Source of the DNA: Planctomycetota bacterium
GTDB taxonomy: Bacteria > Planctomycetota > UBA8108 > SXIK01
Assembly (NCBI GenBank): GCA_965223845.1
Contig: CBDCXR010000004.1
Location: forward strand, 5,312,001 to 5,376,000
DNA: 64,000 bases
Direction: 5' to 3'
This document shows, piece by piece, positions 35,858 through 45,310 of the stretch. Below the pieces are notes generated by a model. That model was not told where the DNA came from. It did not search any database and saw nothing but the letters and a program-made list of their open reading frames with translations. The translations under genes were made by a program, and so were the position numbers. Numbering within the stretch: position 1 is the stretch's first letter; every line of letters starts with the position of its first letter.

Positions 35858-35946
<89 letters not shown>

Positions 35947-39787: not shown

Positions 39788-40747
39788 ATGAAGCGAGCGC
39801 GAGTCCTGATCCCGCGACCGATCGCGCCGATCGGAATCGAGCTGCTATCGCGGGAGTGCGATTGCATCGCGCCGTGGATGACGGGCGAGGTGTGGACGGA
39901 TGAACGAATTCGCGACGAGCTCCGCGACGTCGATGCGATCGTCGTCCGCATCTTCGAGCTCCGTGCGGAAGACATCGACTCCGCGCCGCGGCTCAAGGTG
40001 ATCGCGAAGCACGGCGTCGGTGTGGACAACATCGATTGCTCGGCCGCCGCGCGGCGCGGGATTCCCGTGGTCATCACTCCGGGTGCCAATTCGAACGCGG
40101 TGGCCGAGCACACGCTCGCGCTCATCTTCGCGCTCGCGCGCCAAACGCTCGCGGCCGACGCGATCACGCGCGAAGGTCGATTCGACGAACGAGATTCGTT
40201 CGCGGGCGTCGAGCTCGCCGGAAAGACCGTCGGCGTCGTCGGGTTCGGTCGCATCGGATCGCGTGTCGCCGCGAAAGTGGAGCGCGGACTCGGCATGCGG
40301 GCGGTCGCCTATGATCCGCCTCTCGTCCAGTCGGGTCGGGCGCCGGACCGCGAGTTCGCCCCGACGCTCGACGATGTCGCCGCGAGCGCTGACTTTCTCT
40401 CACTCCACGTTCCCCTCACGCCGGACACCCAGCATCTGGTCGATCGCGAAGTGCTCGAACGTCTCGGCCCGGACGCGTTTCTCATCAACACGTCGCGCGG
40501 AAGCGTCGTCGACGAGCGAGCACTCGTCGGCGCGCTCGAAAGCGGACAGATTCGCGGCGCGGCGCTCGACGTCTTTGAAACCGAGCCGTTGCCAGCCGAC
40601 CACCCACTTTGCGGCGCGCCGCGAACACTTCTTTCGCCGCATGTCGCCGCGGCAACGTCGGAATCACGCGTGGCGATGGCGCGGATGGTAGCGGAGGGGG
40701 TTCTCGCTGCCCTTCGAGGCGAAGCTCCGCCGCACGTAGCGGAGTAA
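39788..40747 (+). CDS. D-2-hydroxyacid dehydrogenase (phosphoglycerate dehydrogenase-like)
   Basis: KHGVGVDNID, AVAEH, GFGRIG, LHVPL, INTSRG, LDVFETEP, SPHVA. Confidence 0.9.
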   Translation: MKRARVLIPRPIAPIGIELLSRECDCIAPWMTGEVWTDERIRDELRDVDAIVVRIFELRAEDIDSAPRLKVIAKHGVGVDNIDCSAAARRGIPVVITPGANSNAVAEHTLALIFALARQTLAADAITREGRFDERDSFAGVELAGKTVGVVGFGRIGSRVAAKVERGLGMRAVAYDPPLVQSGRAPDREFAPTLDDVAASADFLSLHVPLTPDTQHLVDREVLERLGPDAFLINTSRGSVVDERALVGALESGQIRGAALDVFETEPLPADHPLCGAPRTLLSPHVAAATSESRVAMARMVAEGVLAALRGEAPPHVAE

Positions 40748-40750
40748 GCG

Positions 40751-41509
40751 ATGACTACGCTCACTTTCCTCGGAACGGGAAACGCGTTCAACGAGGACGG
40801 ATACTTCTCCACCGCAGTGTGGATCGAGACCGAACGCCGGGAGAACGTTCTGGTCGATGCGGGACCGACGACGCTCGCGGCGATGCGCCGCGCCGAAGTC
40901 GACCCCGACGCGGTCGACGCCGTCTTCATCACACATCTCCACGGCGATCACATCGCGGGCTGGCCGTTTCTCGTCTTGGATCTCGCGCTGCGCGCTCGGC
41001 GGGAACGACCGCTCGACGTCTATGGGCCGATCGGAACCCAAGCCGCTCTCGATGCGCTCGCCCACGTCTCGTACGGCGATGCGATCGCACCCCCGCGCGC
41101 CGCGTTCGAGACTCGCTTTCACGAGCTCGACGTCGAGTCCCGCGATGATGATCGCGTGTTCGACTCGCTCGCATTCGCTGTCGTTCCGGTCGAGCATCAC
41201 CCGAGCTCGCTCGGATACTTGCTTTCGACGGGAGGACATCGGATCGGAATCACCGGCGACACGGGCTGGTGCTCAGGGCTCGAGGAGCTCGCGCAGAGGA
41301 GCTCACTCCTCGTCGCCGAGTGCACCACGGTGGACGAAACGGCGGCCGCTCATCTCTCTCTCGCGGAGTTTCGCGCGCGGCGCGGAGCGCTCTCCGTCGA
41401 GCGGATCGTCCTCGTTCACACGAACGGCGCCGTCCGGTCCTCTCTCCGCGGAGAGGCGATCCCTGGGGTGGTGACGGTTACGGACGGCGAGGTGATGGTT
41501 CTCGCGTAG
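40751..41509 (+). CDS. MBL-fold metallo-hydrolase (RNase Z-like)
   Basis: FLGTG, LVDAG, FITHLHGDH, TGDT, ECT, LVH. Confidence 0.88.
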   Translation: MTTLTFLGTGNAFNEDGYFSTAVWIETERRENVLVDAGPTTLAAMRRAEVDPDAVDAVFITHLHGDHIAGWPFLVLDLALRARRERPLDVYGPIGTQAALDALAHVSYGDAIAPPRAAFETRFHELDVESRDDDRVFDSLAFAVVPVEHHPSSLGYLLSTGGHRIGITGDTGWCSGLEELAQRSSLLVAECTTVDETAAAHLSLAEFRARRGALSVERIVLVHTNGAVRSSLRGEAIPGVVTVTDGEVMVLA

Positions 41510-41590
41510 TGCGCGGACTCGATGGCGGGTGAGAGAGGGAGACGGGAAGAAGAAAGAAGAGAAGAGGAGTTTGTCGGGAACGGGAACGGG

Positions 41591-41630
41591 AAAAAAGAAG
41601 AGCCGACAGGCACGAGACCTGTCGGCTCTT
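41591..41630 (-). terminator. Intrinsic (Rho-independent) terminator on the minus strand
   Basis: Minus strand AAGAGCCGACAGG-TCTCGTG-CCTGTCGGCTCTT (13-bp stem) followed by CTTTTTT. The U-tract exists only on the minus strand. Confidence 0.85.
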
Positions 41631-42040
41631 GGCAATCCGATCCCTTCGGGGGGAGGAGGAGGGACCAGAAGGCGGAGGAGTGAGGGCCGAGGAGCGGGGA
41701 GAGGGAGGGGAGAGAGGGGGAGGTGAAGGGAACCAGCGGCGAGCCGCTGGTTCGGGTCGGCCCTCGAGAGTTGGGAGAGAGGGGAGGGGTGGAATGTGCT
41801 GAGGAGGGGCGGGCCTCGCTGCCGCGGAGGACAGGCGCCCGGCGGAGGGAAGGGACCCGGGAGCCGACGGGTGAGGAAGGGCCGTCGGCTCCCGTGAGGG
41901 GGGTCCCCTCGAGTGAGGGAGGGAGAGAGAGCAGCGGTGCTGCGGGGCGGTCGAACGACCGAGGAGGGAGGTGATCGTCCGGCCGCAGAGGGTTTCGGGA
42001 GGTTTCGGGTCAGATTTCCTTCGCCGGGGGTCAGCCGGCT
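41591..42040 (-). ncRNA. Candidate ~450-nt CU-rich multi-hairpin non-coding RNA
   Basis: Lies between a sigma54-type promoter and the terminator. No ATG/GTG/TTG on the minus strand between 41636 and 42040. Several strong hairpins and 14 CCTCC motifs. Confidence 0.65.
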
Positions 42041-42049
42041 CGGGGGGAA

Positions 42050-42067
42050 AAGCACCGTGCGTGCCGA
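42050..42067 (-). promoter_or_regulatory. Sigma54-type -24/-12 promoter
   Basis: Minus strand TCGGCACGCACGGTGCTT = GG-N10-GC with GGCACG core (consensus YTGGCACGRNNNTTGCW). Confidence 0.7.
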
Positions 42068-42092
42068 AGCGCCCGACCCGCCCCCGAAGACA

Positions 42093-42123
42093 CCTTAAGT
42101 TATTTACATGAAATATCTTAAGG
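42093..42123. promoter_or_regulatory. AT-rich palindromic IHF-like bending site
   Basis: CCTTAAG-ttatttacatgaaatat-CTTAAGG. AA-N4-TTA occurs on both strands (partial match to WATCARNNNNTTR); positioned between promoter and enhancer. Confidence 0.5.
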
Positions 42124-42187
42124 GCCTCCCGATCGTGTTCCCTATCCGCTCGAATCCGAGCTTGCGGCCCCCGTTCCCGGACCGGGC

Positions 42188-42204
42188 TGTATCAAAAGGA
42201 GACA
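42188..42204. promoter_or_regulatory. Candidate upstream activator sequence for a sigma54 enhancer-binding protein
   Basis: TGTATCAAAAGGAGACA (TGT-N11-ACA imperfect palindrome), ~150 bp upstream of the predicted start site. Confidence 0.5.
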
Positions 42205-42538
42205 CGTAAGCGATCGGTTCGGGTGAGGCGAGACGGAGGAACGTCCGGCCGCGAGCACTCTGAGGATACGGCCGGCGATCTCGCGTGCTCGGCTGTCTCC
42301 GGCACGTAGAGTGACGGCGCACGCAAGACACACCGTCGGCGGTTTTTCCGGTGGACCGCCCCCGCGAGCGATGCCGATGTACCGGGGAGACGGCGAGTTA
42401 ACTCGTCTCCTGCGGCGGTCACTCGCGGGGATTCGGAAACGGGTCCAGAGCTCACTCGTCCATCTCGACGCTACCGCAGGGTTCGAACGCCGGCCCCGCA
42501 GGCAGCGAAACGCACGACCCCGGAGCGCAGGCGGAGCG

Positions 42539-43186
42539 ATGACCGAGTTTCTTCAACTCTGCGGACAGCCGTTCAACCTCCCGTGGACGCTGCTGCTCGG
42601 TCTCGTCGTTCTCTATTGGGTGGGCGTCATCGTCGGGGCGCTCGACCTCGACGCGTTCGACTTCGATCTCGACGCGGACGTCGATGTCGATGCCGACGCC
42701 GATGTTGAAGTCGACACCGACGCGAGCGTTCACGGCGGAAGCGCACTGCTCGGCGTTCTCCGCTTCTTCGAGTTCGGCACCGTTCCGACGATGGTCATCG
42801 TCAGCTTCTTCGCGCTCGGTGGCTGGACGGCAGCGCTCCTCTTCAACTTTCACTTCGGTGGATCGACCCTCGTCGGCTTCCTCCTCTTGATCCCGATCTT
42901 CCTCGTCGCCCTCGCCGTGACGAAGGTGACGGCCGTACCGCTCGCCGCGCTGTTTCGCCAACTCGAGAACGAGGACACCGGGACGGTGACGGTCGAAGGT
43001 CAGATCTGCACGGTGAAATCTTCGAAAGTCGACGGCGAGAGCGGTCAAGCCGAGGTGAAATCGAAGGGTGCACCAGTGCTTCTCAACGTTCGCACACGAA
43101 ACGGTGAAGTTCTCCATCGCGGAGACGAGGCGGTGGTGGTTGAGCCAGACCCCGAGACGGGGACGTACTTCGTCGCTCGCCTCTAA
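42539..43186 (+). CDS. YqiJ/NfeD-like membrane protein with C-terminal OB-fold
   Basis: GGAG RBS; PFNLPWTLLLGLVVLYW, acidic DxDxD loop, GTVP, GQICTV...GQAEV...LLNVR; directly upstream of flotillin. Confidence 0.82.
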   Translation: MTEFLQLCGQPFNLPWTLLLGLVVLYWVGVIVGALDLDAFDFDLDADVDVDADADVEVDTDASVHGGSALLGVLRFFEFGTVPTMVIVSFFALGGWTAALLFNFHFGGSTLVGFLLLIPIFLVALAVTKVTAVPLAALFRQLENEDTGTVTVEGQICTVKSSKVDGESGQAEVKSKGAPVLLNVRTRNGEVLHRGDEAVVVEPDPETGTYFVARL

Positions 43187-43279
43187 CTCAGTTCAAGAAA
43201 CGCTCGGTCTCACCGCCAGCGGTCTATCCACGAATCTCGAAACCAACGACAAAACGGCGCAGTAGCTCGGAGTAGAGAC

Positions 43280-45310
43280 ATGCTTTTCCTCCTTCAGACT
43301 GACCCCACGAGTTGGATCCCCCTCATCGTCGGAGCGATCTTCTGCCTCATCCTCGCCGGGATCGCCGTCCTCATCGTCAAGTGCTACCGCAAGGTGCCGC
43401 AGGGGACCGCTCTCGTGCGCACGGGGATGGGCGGGCCGAAAGTCACGACGGGCACTGGAGTCGTCGTCATCCCGGTTCTCCACCGCGCCGAGCTGATGGA
43501 CATCTCCGTCAAGCGAATCGAAATCGCGCGCGAAGGCGAAGACGGCCTCATTTGCGCCGACAATCTCCGCGCCGATATCAAGGTGGCCTTCTTCGTCCGC
43601 GTGAACAACACCGAGGAAGACATTCTTCAGGTCGCCCAATCGCTCGGTTGCGAGCGCGCCTCGCAGCAGCGGGCGCTCATCGAGCTCTTCGACGCGAAGT
43701 TTTCCGAAGCGCTCAAGACGGTCGGCAAGCAGTTCGATTTCGTCTCGCTCTACAACGAACGGGATCGTTTCAAGGAACAGATCGTCGCGCTGATCGGAAC
43801 GGATCTGAACGGCTACGTCCTTGACGACACCGCGATCGACTTCCTCGAGCAGACCTCGCTCGAGCAGCTCAACCCGAACAACATCCTCGACGCCGAGGGA
43901 ATCAAGAAGATCACCGATCTGACCGCGCAGCAGCAGATCCTCGCGAACGACATCGTGCGCGAGAAGGAGAAGGTGATCAAAAAGCAGGACGTCGAAGCGC
44001 GCGAGGCCATCCTCGAGCTCGATCGCCAACAAGCCGAAGCCGAGGCGCGTCAGCTGCGAGAAATCCAAAGCGTCCAGGCACGCGAGACATCCGAGACGAC
44101 GCGAGTCAAGGAAGAGGAGCGGCTCAAGGCCGAACGGGCCCGTCTGACCACCGACGAAGAGGTGAAGGTCGCCGAAGAGAACGTCGAGCGACAAATCATT
44201 GTCGCGAAAAAGAACAAGGAGCGTACCGAGGCGGTCGAGAACGAGCGGATCGAAAAGGATCGGATGCTCGAGCAGACCGAGCGCGAACGCATCGTCACGC
44301 TAGCGCAAATTGAAAAGGACAAGGCGGTCGAAGCGGAGAAGAAAGAGATCCAGGACGTCATCCGCGAGCGCGTCGTCGTCGAGCGGGCTGTCGTCGAAGA
44401 GGAGGAGCGGATCAAGGACACGCGAGACTTCGCCGGCGCGGAGCGACAGAAGCAAGTCGCGGTGACGAAGGCTCAGCAGACCGCAGAGGAAGCGAAGATC
44501 CGTGAGGTTCAAGCCGCGGAAGCCAGCAAGGAAGCGTCGATGCGTCTCGCCGATCAGATGTTGATCGAAGCCGAGGCGAGTCGCGGCGCGGCGGAGAAGG
44601 AGACGGAAGCCAAGAAGCTCCTCGCCGAGGCGAAGGCCGCAGAGGAAGCCGCGCTCGGACTCGCCGAAGCCGAGGTCATGGTCGCCAAGGCAGACGCGAC
44701 GCAGAAGCAGGGTGCCGTCGAGGCCGAAGTGCTCGAGCTCAAGTACTCGGCGGAAGCGGAAGGAATCGACAAGAAGGCCGCGGCGATGAAGAAATTCGAC
44801 GAAGTCGGCCGCGATCACGAGGAGTTCAAGCTCCGGCTCGAGAAGGACCGCGACATCGATCTCGAATCGATTCGGGTGCATCGCGAGGTCGCGGAGTACC
44901 GCGCGCAAATGGTCGGCGAGGCACTCAAGACAGCCAAGATCGACATCGTCGGCGGCGAATCCGAGTTCTTCGACAAGATCGTCGGTGCGATCGGAAACGG
45001 CAAGGCCGTCGATCGAACCGTCCTCGGAAGCGATGTTCTCACGGACGTGAAACAGACGTTCTTCAATGGCGACGCGGAGTACTTCAAGGCTCAGCTCGAA
45101 CGCTTCATCGGTCAATTCGGCGTCGACTCCGAGGACATCAAGAACCTCTCGATCGCCGCGCTGATCGGCAAGCTCATGAGCAAGGCGGACAGCGAGACGG
45201 CGCGCGGACGACTCCAGTCGATGCTCGGCGCGGCGCGCGAGGCCGGCCTCGCGGACACTCTCGTCTCGCACCTCGGGCTCGATCTCTCCAAGGACTCCGC
45301 GCGCTCTTGA
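43280..45310 (+). CDS. Flotillin/SPFH-domain protein (YqiK-like)
   Basis: N-terminal TM, YRKVPQGTALVRTG, GLICADNLRADIKVAFFVRVN, KFSEALK, long AE-rich coiled coil. Confidence 0.92.
   Translation: MLFLLQTDPTSWIPLIVGAIFCLILAGIAVLIVKCYRKVPQGTALVRTGMGGPKVTTGTGVVVIPVLHRAELMDISVKRIEIAREGEDGLICADNLRADIKVAFFVRVNNTEEDILQVAQSLGCERASQQRALIELFDAKFSEALKTVGKQFDFVSLYNERDRFKEQIVALIGTDLNGYVLDDTAIDFLEQTSLEQLNPNNILDAEGIKKITDLTAQQQILANDIVREKEKVIKKQDVEAREAILELDRQQAEAEARQLREIQSVQARETSETTRVKEEERLKAERARLTTDEEVKVAEENVERQIIVAKKNKERTEAVENERIEKDRMLEQTERERIVTLAQIEKDKAVEAEKKEIQDVIRERVVVERAVVEEEERIKDTRDFAGAERQKQVAVTKAQQTAEEAKIREVQAAEASKEASMRLADQMLIEAEASRGAAEKETEAKKLLAEAKAAEEAALGLAEAEVMVAKADATQKQGAVEAEVLELKYSAEAEGIDKKAAAMKKFDEVGRDHEEFKLRLEKDRDIDLESIRVHREVAEYRAQMVGEALKTAKIDIVGGESEFFDKIVGAIGNGKAVDRTVLGSDVLTDVKQTFFNGDAEYFKAQLERFIGQFGVDSEDIKNLSIAALIGKLMSKADSETARGRLQSMLGAAREAGLADTLVSHLGLDLSKDSARS

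Follow-up and report, generated by a model that had tools for sequence, protein, structure and literature searches.

A candidate sigma-54-dependent, C-rich noncoding RNA gene with anti-Shine-Dalgarno-type motifs in a planctomycete genome

RNAs of the RsaE/RoxS type in Firmicutes carry unpaired C-rich motifs that pair with G-rich ribosome-binding sites, in bacteria that have no reliance on Hfq. The noncoding RNA CrcZ of Pseudomonas is about 400 nucleotides (nt) long. In the portion of the published account available, CrcZ and CrcY are described as RpoN- and CbrB-dependent noncoding RNAs that serve as protein sponges, their level being set by a signal and their effect exerted by titration (PMC5113210). 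The cuckoo/CcsR RNAs (RSs0680) of Alphaproteobacteria are presented, in excerpts of their description, as two to four adjacent hairpins, each displaying the anti-Shine-Dalgarno-like motif CCUCCUCCC in its loop, with a terminator-like hairpin closing the transcript. An RpoHI/HII promoter drives them together with a small gene located upstream, and Hfq binds them (PMC4615179). Here we analyze an interval in a genome of Planctomycetota that resembles each of these systems in part. It occupies positions 42204-41591, on the minus strand, of a 64,000-nt window, the whole stretch of DNA analyzed (G000:C4:5312001-5376000). The genome is metagenome derived, with an estimated completeness of 91.7%; it has 7.9 Mb, a G+C content of 65% and, as expected of Planctomycetota, many PSD1-domain genes (51). 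Chromosome scans covered 7.87 Mb.

We favor, with confidence slightly better than even, the interpretation that this interval is a lineage-specific, sigma-54-dependent and terminator-bounded noncoding RNA gene. The product would be a stand-alone RNA of ~450 nt, found so far in one planctomycete genome only, and here too the balance tips modestly toward the proposal. A transcription unit is likely; a promoter architecture and a terminator enclose an interval that has no open reading frame (ORF) between them. The promoter-type architecture, the terminator, the lack of coding potential and the predicted structure are apparent from the sequence and its comparison with other loci; from them we infer transcription, dependence on sigma-54 and a function for the product. 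Direct reading of the sequence located all of the minus-strand features that an initial annotation of the window had listed, each where it had been placed (Table 1).

The promoter site reads cGGCACG-cacg-gTGCt (42066-42051), and its GG and GC doublets are exactly 10 nt apart. The sigma-54 promoter consensus is TGGCACG-N4-TTGCW, from which the site departs twice, by a C for T ahead of GG and by a G for the first T of TTGC. There are 148 occurrences of GGCAC-N6-TGC in the chromosome, 57 of them intergenic, which is a density 2.52 times that within genes. At the wrong spacings (N4, N5, N7 and N8), the same pair of words is found between genes at 0.79-0.91 times the genic density. The pattern that fits the promoter of the locus, GGCACG-N5-TGC[AT], is intergenic at 13 of 24 sites. 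These and the other gene-context counts rely on a crude caller based on ORFs and third-position G+C content, whose 4130 calls cover 80% of the chromosome and whose start codons, as well as some genes, are unreliable. The genome encodes the machinery that such a promoter would use: two rpoN genes (two Sigma54_DBD matches), 36 matches to Sigma54_activat, 30 of them strong, and two genes of the HU/IHF family. The nearest Sigma54_activat match is more than 100 kb from the candidate RNA, and no activator gene lies beside it. Two consensus sigma-54 motifs provided positive controls, one ahead of a type IV pilin-like gene (N_methyl; C4:712072, plus strand) and the other directly before a ClpB-like gene (Clp_N, AAA; C4:1598334, minus strand); the ClpB-like gene is an unusual sigma-54 target. 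Elsewhere, a sigma-54 motif paired with a terminator was seen only at the pilin gene, at one G-rich 224-nt interval and at one partly coding interval. The distance from the promoter to the predicted start has a parallel in a conserved small-RNA family (C4:540647, see below), where the offset is likewise 11-12 nt. No sigma-70-like promoter was found in 41000-43000. In silico, the promoter reading is supported by an architecture that the site shares with sigma-54-type promoters in this genome and its relatives.

The AT-rich palindrome between the presumed enhancer and the promoter motif offers the stronger argument for the promoter. Its 13-nt arms (42093-42105 and 42111-42123) are 92% complementary, and 24 of 30 nt across it are A or T, a content reached by only 42 such segments in 7.87 Mb. 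The CTTAAG hexamer within the palindrome has 75 copies in the chromosome, 51 of which lie between gene calls. It stands within 120 nt upstream of 5 of the 148 correctly spaced GGCAC-N6-TGC motifs (4 of the 57 intergenic ones), whereas for six wrong spacings combined the figure is 1 of 982, and 0 of 196 when intergenic motifs alone are counted. At C4:6134007, the same genome has CTTAAG-N17-CTTAAA together with TGGCAC-N5-GTGCTTT, much like the locus under study. Relatives carry near-identical elements 18-32 nt upstream of sigma-54-type motifs. Over 27 nt, and counted by hand, 23 positions are identical before a nucleotidyl-transferase (GlgC-like) gene in G024 (L158), 21 before a short hairpin-plus-U RNA that is convergent with an activator gene in G003 (L146), and 19 before a secretin-like gene in G019 (L150). 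In G029 and G034 (L139 and L141), the element precedes pilin genes and is located between GTCAC/GTGAC repeats and the promoter. IHF sites in classical sigma-54 promoters occupy the place where this element sits. By eye, the palindrome does not fit the consensus for IHF in E. coli; probably it serves here in place of an IHF site, or else as a binding site for an activator. The TGT-N11-ACA palindrome farther upstream was seen as a single copy and, being so short, is weak on its own.

Within the same genome, copies of the AT-rich element are found at C4:6134046-6134076 and C4:2184663, and across the class the pattern is approximately CTTAAG-N3-TTTCA-N2-TAAATAACTTAAG, before pilin, secretin, GlgC-like and small-RNA loci. 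By our own arithmetic, base composition predicts several hundred copies of CTTAAG in the chromosome, and the rarity of the hexamer suggests avoidance, for example by a restriction system. At C4:2184663-2184900 (L112/L128), a sigma-54-type promoter (C4:2184710) with a CTTAAGATA element precedes a short ORF-less interval. Both this interval and the one in G003 (L146), which is ~95 nt long and ends in a hairpin and U-tract, converge on the 3' end of a large gene for an enhancer-binding protein, an arrangement that may represent a pair of activator and small RNA.

At the opposite end of the interval, the initial annotation had described a 13-bp hairpin with a U-tract. The sequence bears this out with a perfect 13-bp inverted repeat at 41598-41630 and a T-tract on the minus strand only. 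In a scan for terminators, the site (41630-41598) was returned with 14 pairs (8 G-C), a 5-nt loop, a CTTTTTT tail and a score of 14. The chromosome has 565 such hairpin-plus-T sites, 237 of which score at least 13. Because 165 of these 237 lie within 100 nt past a co-oriented stop codon, hairpin-plus-T sites can be taken as real terminators in this organism; another 8 are at 100-300 nt, 19 are inside gene calls and 45 are orphans. There is no co-oriented gene call for 14 kb upstream of the terminator at 41630-41598, so any transcript terminated by it must originate within the gap. Of the 45 orphans, only this site has 52% C upstream. Six other orphan terminators (C4: 571264, 2287494, 2475689, 1419923, 90627 and 87239) have almost identical stems, AAGGACTTACG...CGTGAGTCCTT, ahead of a T-run and may belong to a small transcription unit that is repeated or to a mobile terminator module.

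No coding signature was found between promoter and terminator. The initial annotation had noted ~450 nt without a start codon until the terminator region, and none indeed occurs between 42055 and 41635: the only ATG, GTG or TTG triplets from 42067 to 41591 are a GTG at 42055 (inside the promoter), a TTG at 41635 and a GTG at 41613. G+C content at the three codon positions is flat (0.68-0.76) in all six frames of the body; in neighboring genes it is about 0.7/0.47/0.78. It is scarcely credible that the interval encodes instead a minus-strand, proline-rich protein with a non-canonical start, read in a frame that stays open between 42055 and 41303. This frame does extend over 250 codons, and stop codons are missing from two of the body's three minus-strand frames, but open frames are to be expected where A and T are so scarce. 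Moreover, the codon-position profile is flat in every frame and no start codon follows the promoter. The frame, which has no Pfam match, also runs across the terminator and then antisense into the neighboring gene.

The body of the predicted RNA combines an extreme composition with an ordered fold. The count of 14 CCUCC motifs in a C/U-skewed body, given in the initial annotation, was reproduced; 14 CCTCC per 400 nt is the chromosome maximum (mean 0.6). The next highest counts are 10, 9 and 8, at loci that consist of coding or simple-repeat DNA. Other CCTCC clusters were considered as comparable loci and rejected, being coding DNA or tandem repeats. Folding of the minus strand gives -181.6 kcal/mol (z = -7.35). 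Guanines are nearly all paired (unpaired probability 0.07), and the CCUCC motifs stay largely unpaired (mean probability 0.78). Inverted-repeat scanning recovered the stems of the initial annotation as perfect repeats of 13, 11 and 13 bp, the last being the terminator. Two of the three hairpins with C-rich loops contain two G-U pairs each, which would be A-C mismatches if read on the plus strand. The 5' hairpin is absent when the whole RNA is folded at minimum free energy and is therefore optional. The 3' end of 16S rRNA in this genome is GGATCACCTCCTTT. Its last bases, TCACCTCC, occur twice in the body (P = 0.006 in dinucleotide shuffles, a post hoc finding), and one copy extends to GATCACCTCC. 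On the 5' side of the predicted hairpin loop of 41952-41981, GAUCACCUCC (41977-41968) is an exact 10-nt copy of the 16S rRNA 3' end. No conserved repeated module beyond low complexity was identified in the body.

Table 1. Positions of predicted elements and flanking genes in the window
Feature	Position	Strand	Remarks
TGT-N11-ACA palindrome (TGTCTC-N5-GATACA)	42188-42204	-	Candidate activator site, ~135 nt upstream of the -24 element
AT-rich palindrome CCTTAAGATATTTCATGTAAATAACTTAAGG	42093-42123	-	Between presumed enhancer and -24/-12 motif, in the position of an IHF-like bending site
Sigma-54-type promoter GGCACGCACGGTGC	42052-42065	-	-24 GG at 42065-42064, -12 GC at 42053-42052, then TTTT
Predicted transcription start	42040	-	An A, 12 nt past the C of the -12 GC; from promoter geometry
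C-rich, start-codon-free body	41631-42040	-	50.2% C, 21.0% G, 17.6% T, 11.2% A; 14 CCTCC
5' hairpin GCCGG-CUGACCC-CCGGC	42023-42039	-	Starts at +2; read from the sequence
Hairpin, loop ACCUCCCUCCUC	41952-41981	-	9 bp with 2 G-U pairs; minimum-energy fold
Hairpin, loop CCCUUCCUCAC	41858-41894	-	Perfect, 12-13 bp; inverted-repeat scan and fold (helix 41893-41859)
Hairpin GAACCAGCGG-CUCG-CCGCUGGUUC	41730-41753	-	Perfect, 10-11 bp; inverted-repeat scan and fold
Hairpin, loop CCUCCUCCCCCCGA	41636-41669	-	10 bp with 2 G-U pairs; loop holds the CCUCCUCCC motif; minimum-energy fold
Intrinsic terminator	41591-41630	-	13-14 bp stem, 5-7 nt loop, CUUUUUU tail
(CCCGTT)n-CCCGACAAACT with CT-rich tail	41556-41592	-	Genome-specific repeat directly after the terminator
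Metallo-beta-lactamase-fold gene	40751-41509	+	Flanks the gap
Membrane-protein gene	start 42311 or, more likely, 42536	+	Other flank; followed by a flotillin-like gene

The locus sits in an intergenic gap of ~1 kb. A 3-kb stretch around it is present in one piece and at even depth in contigs from four DNA sequencing runs. The (CCCGTT)n-CCCGACAAACT repeat that adjoins the terminator is probably a neighbor and not part of the RNA; this 37-nt repeat is all that recurs within the genome. Its family has 25 matches, 17 of them intergenic, and none in 40 relatives. Since 8 of the 17 lie no more than 80 nt past a co-oriented stop codon, the candidate RNA holds a place that a gene usually takes. In 7 of the 17 copies, an inverted (GGGAAC)n arm is found within 220 nt.

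A second small RNA is predicted in the same genome at C4:540614-540829 (L115:1519-1723), behind an ORF-less consensus sigma-54 promoter at C4:540647. It is ~130 nt long, with 5' ...GAGACCCAAAACCCUAACCCAACCCUUCCUC..., a C-rich single-stranded 5' part ACCCAAAACCCUAACCC, a copy of CCUCCUCC, and a terminal hairpin. Matches were found in 6 of the 20 other genomes searched. An alignment of five genomes from two families shows invariant TGG.A and TGC promoter boxes and an invariant TGAGACCCAAAACCC that begins 11-12 nt past the -12 GC; pairing at the foot of the terminal stem is preserved, and two of the sequences have A-U there in place of G-C. The ortholog in G007 has GTGC at -12, as does the site at 42052-42065. 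Like the candidate, this RNA is placed behind a sigma-54-type promoter, itself closely preceded by an AT-rich palindrome, is C-rich, carries CCUCC in or near a hairpin, ends in a terminal hairpin and contains no ORF. The two differ in size and distribution, one being ~130 nt and conserved and the other 450 nt and an orphan. A paralogous relationship was considered and rejected, as the local alignment score of 29 is not significant against 26 ± 4 for shuffled sequences. The conserved RNA has no Rfam match and is, as far as our literature search goes, undescribed; an Rfam scan of four other loci returned nothing credible. This lineage thus has predicted C-rich small RNAs that depend on sigma-54, and the conserved example raises the prior for the orphan.

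In the mechanism that we propose, an enhancer-binding protein would activate RNA polymerase-sigma54 at GGCACG-N4-GTGCT, helped by the AT-rich palindrome, which is placed like IHF-type bending sites. Transcription would begin near 42040 and stop at the hairpin and U-tract of 41630-41591, and the product would consist of stable hairpins with long single-stranded C/U-rich stretches between them. Three hairpin loops and most of the linkers would expose CCUCC-type sequence identical to the anti-Shine-Dalgarno end of 16S rRNA. These exposed stretches could then pair with purine-rich ribosome-binding regions and lower the translation of a set of mRNAs under the activating signal. The exposed C-rich motifs are complementary to the Shine-Dalgarno (SD) sequence of the host: GGAG/GAGG is enriched 2.3-2.6-fold before the crude gene starts, and SD-like words are enriched 2.3-4.4-fold. 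We infer an anti-SD or sponge function; base-pairing with ribosome-binding regions would be the most economical mechanism, and is put forward tentatively. A more far-reaching variant, which we think quite improbable, makes the RNA a signal-induced decoy of the ribosome's anti-SD end, with ~14 copies of the 16S motif, including GAUCACCUCC. If true, it would compete with 30S subunits for SD sequences across the transcriptome, or soak up Rho, and could, under a particular stress, switch the cell from one mode of translation (SD-led or SD-independent) or from one termination regime to another.

A number of observations weigh against this interpretation of the locus and its function. One is the G that replaces the consensus T in the -12 element; GGCAC-N5-GTGC, the subclass to which the site belongs, is enriched between genes 1.45-fold, which is weak (14 of 53 sites). 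The sigma-54 promoter proposed in the initial annotation is supported by the spacing-specific intergenic enrichment, the presence of rpoN and activators and an architecture common to relatives, but only weakly by enrichment of its own subclass. Two controls for the AT-rich element were also unfavorable. In this genome, a reversed-pattern control for CTTAAG with a promoter gave 11 matches and the true pattern 4, although the hexamer when reversed becomes another word that is more common, and an 18-mer of the element, allowing up to two mismatches, was not enriched overall (56 versus 50 in 59 genomes). Because neither control helps, the argument from this element rests on how element and promoter occur together and on the extended identity. 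Conservation is lacking as well. The initial annotation had proposed a search of related genomes, and no homologue of the body was found in 40 relatives; a single 63-nt match in G015 was rejected since it lies in coding-like DNA. Nor was a syntenic counterpart found beside the flanking metallo-beta-lactamase (MBL)-fold gene in 80 metagenomic loci and three family-level genomes. The 80 loci (best identity 49%) have at most 6 CCTCC per 400 nt, and in the three genomes the gene is in another neighborhood; the flotillin-like neighbor has weak relatives only.

The sequence class to which the body belongs is also common in this genome. By one criterion there are 93 pyrimidine-rich intergenic tracts, of which the candidate, at 392 nt, is the longest, and 70 of the 93 abut the stop codon of an opposite-strand gene, as here, where the tract overlaps the stop of the MBL-fold gene by 19 nt. 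This prevalence hints at a general role unrelated to a specific RNA. It may be that the plus strand is the functional one, the interval being a purine-rich, untranslated 3' extension of the MBL-fold gene or an operon spacer and the minus-strand signals incidental or secondary, an explanation that we consider unlikely. A tract that abuts an opposite-strand stop is purine-rich in the sense of that gene, which holds for the candidate. Moreover, 47 of the 93 tracts contain the repeat CTTCG..CCTTCGCGCTCTTCGTGT, whose copies are found a median of 31 nt from a convergent stop codon. The flanking genes are all on the plus strand, and with no plus-strand terminator between 41000 and 43000, read-through from the upstream gene is plausible. 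However, the strong hairpin has its T-tract on one strand only, the promoter and the conserved AT-rich element point to the minus strand, and the plus-strand fold is less exceptional (z = -4.05). The candidate lacks the CTTCG repeat that marks about half of the other tracts, and its body is C-rich rather than CT-microsatellite-like. CsrA would be the obvious reader of a GGA-rich RNA. It was not found in the genome (91.7% complete), which speaks against the plus-strand CsrA sponge that the initial annotation had named as an alternative.

The abundance of tracts could also mean that the interval is simply the longest piece of low-complexity DNA, with no function at the RNA level: a spacer acting as DNA, an insulator through which Rho is loaded onto stray antisense transcripts, or expanded repeat debris, any transcript from the sigma-54 promoter being a by-product. 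We regard this explanation, too, as improbable. Two genome-specific repeat families are tied to the tracts, one with a copy directly beside the terminator. In dinucleotide-preserving shuffles of the body, CCTCC occurs 9.3 ± 2.7 times against the observed 14 (P = 0.06), so composition, and not the pentamer itself, is the unusual thing, and the excess of CCUCC is largely explained by it. The lack of conservation, the lack of enriched complementarity at translation starts and the presence of Rho fit this explanation equally. On the other side, drifted low-complexity DNA would not be expected to yield three perfect hairpins of 10-13 bp and a z of -7.35. The remaining long tracts resemble microsatellites and contain more T, with 6-16% G. 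A conserved promoter architecture precisely juxtaposed with a 5' hairpin at +2 and a strong terminator, and no ORF in between, is the anatomy of a gene. The CTTCG repeat deserves description in its own right. As CTTCGTCTTCCTTCGCG..CCTTCGCGCTCTTCGTGT it has 162 matches, 129 of them intergenic. In the form CTTCGTCTTCCTTCGCGTCC-CCTTCGCGCTCTTCGTGT-GAA it comprises four CTTCG boxes ~10 nt apart, usually behind a CT-rich low-complexity tract. One copy is in the window at 35866-35883 (minus strand) and the others are at 128 further intergenic places in C4; 102 copies are oriented toward the stop codon of a convergent gene, and convergent genes enclose 33 divergent pairs. The repeat may represent a 3'-end element or belong to the REP-like class.

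The proposed function faces objections of its own. Of 4130 genes, 48 have a perfect complement of at least 11 nt at -40 to +15 and 47 have one in a control window, so the prediction of targets at translation starts found no enrichment, in a test that is weak because the gene starts are crude. Hfq was not found in the genome. Untranslated RNA that is C-rich and G-poor is a textbook Rho substrate, the Rho gene is present, and the full-length RNA may therefore be scarce. To our knowledge, bacterial RNAs that titrate Rho are not an established class. The RNA may nevertheless be real but work as a protein sponge, its C-rich stretches titrating Rho or a KH/S1-type protein under a sigma-54 signal. 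The presence of Rho and the lack of enriched base-pairing targets are compatible with this, as is a body of 50% C and 21% G in which pairing of nearly all G leaves C/U stretches free. The layout also resembles that of CrcZ, in which, as far as the excerpted account describes it, an RpoN- and activator-dependent promoter drives a repeated single-stranded motif that sequesters protein (PMC5113210). Against it, no candidate binding protein was identified and the body holds no conserved repeated module beyond low complexity. We find the sponge very doubtful.

Whichever way the RNA would act, it is not a member of the CrcZ, cuckoo/CcsR or RsaE-type families. An Rfam 15 scan of the whole window gave 0 matches at gathering thresholds, and a permissive scan of 40500-43500 gave 7, the best at 13-20 bits against thresholds of 40-105, in keeping with the statement in the initial annotation that no described family was recognized. 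RsaE/RoxS-type RNAs are ~100 nt long, with few C-rich motifs and different promoters, unlike the candidate, which has no Rfam match. A Rho utilization (rut) region is a long C-rich, G-poor, poorly structured stretch of untranslated RNA. Such a site is located in another transcript and terminates it, whereas the C-rich tract of the candidate makes up the whole product and is followed by an intrinsic terminator. CrcZ, in the available part of its description, is alike in its activator-requiring -24/-12 promoter, its length as a noncoding RNA and its many copies of a short single-stranded motif (PMC5113210). Its motif is, according to the same excerpt, the A-rich AAnAAnAA that binds Hfq/Crc (PMC5113210), whereas the candidate has 11% A and CCUCC-like motifs in a genome in which Hfq was not found; composition and the lack of an Rfam match both separate it from the CrcZ family. 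The loops ACCUCCCUCCUC, CCCUUCCUCAC and CCUCCUCCCCCCGA, borne on hairpins of 30-35 nt, recall the cuckoo RNAs as these appear in the excerpts (PMC4615179). Only one of them holds CCUCCUCCC exactly, however, the other two having related motifs, and the hairpins are 60-190 nt apart. The candidate has most of its motifs in linkers, a sigma-54-type promoter and no attached ORF. The cuckoo/CcsR models of Rfam gave no match even at E ≤ 10.

Regulatory RNAs are essentially undescribed in Planctomycetota, and our literature search returned no paper on sigma-54-dependent or C-rich small RNAs in this phylum. The main limit of the present case is that it is an orphan locus in one metagenome-derived genome, so experiments must show whether it teaches anything general. 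Should the transcript exist, the C-rich small RNAs would gain a multivalent member of unusual length. The shared AT-rich element gives a handle on sigma-54 promoter architecture in the class. Taken with the conserved RNA at C4:540647, the candidate would, if true, indicate that the phylum couples its many enhancer-binding proteins to RNA regulators that act without Hfq or CsrA.

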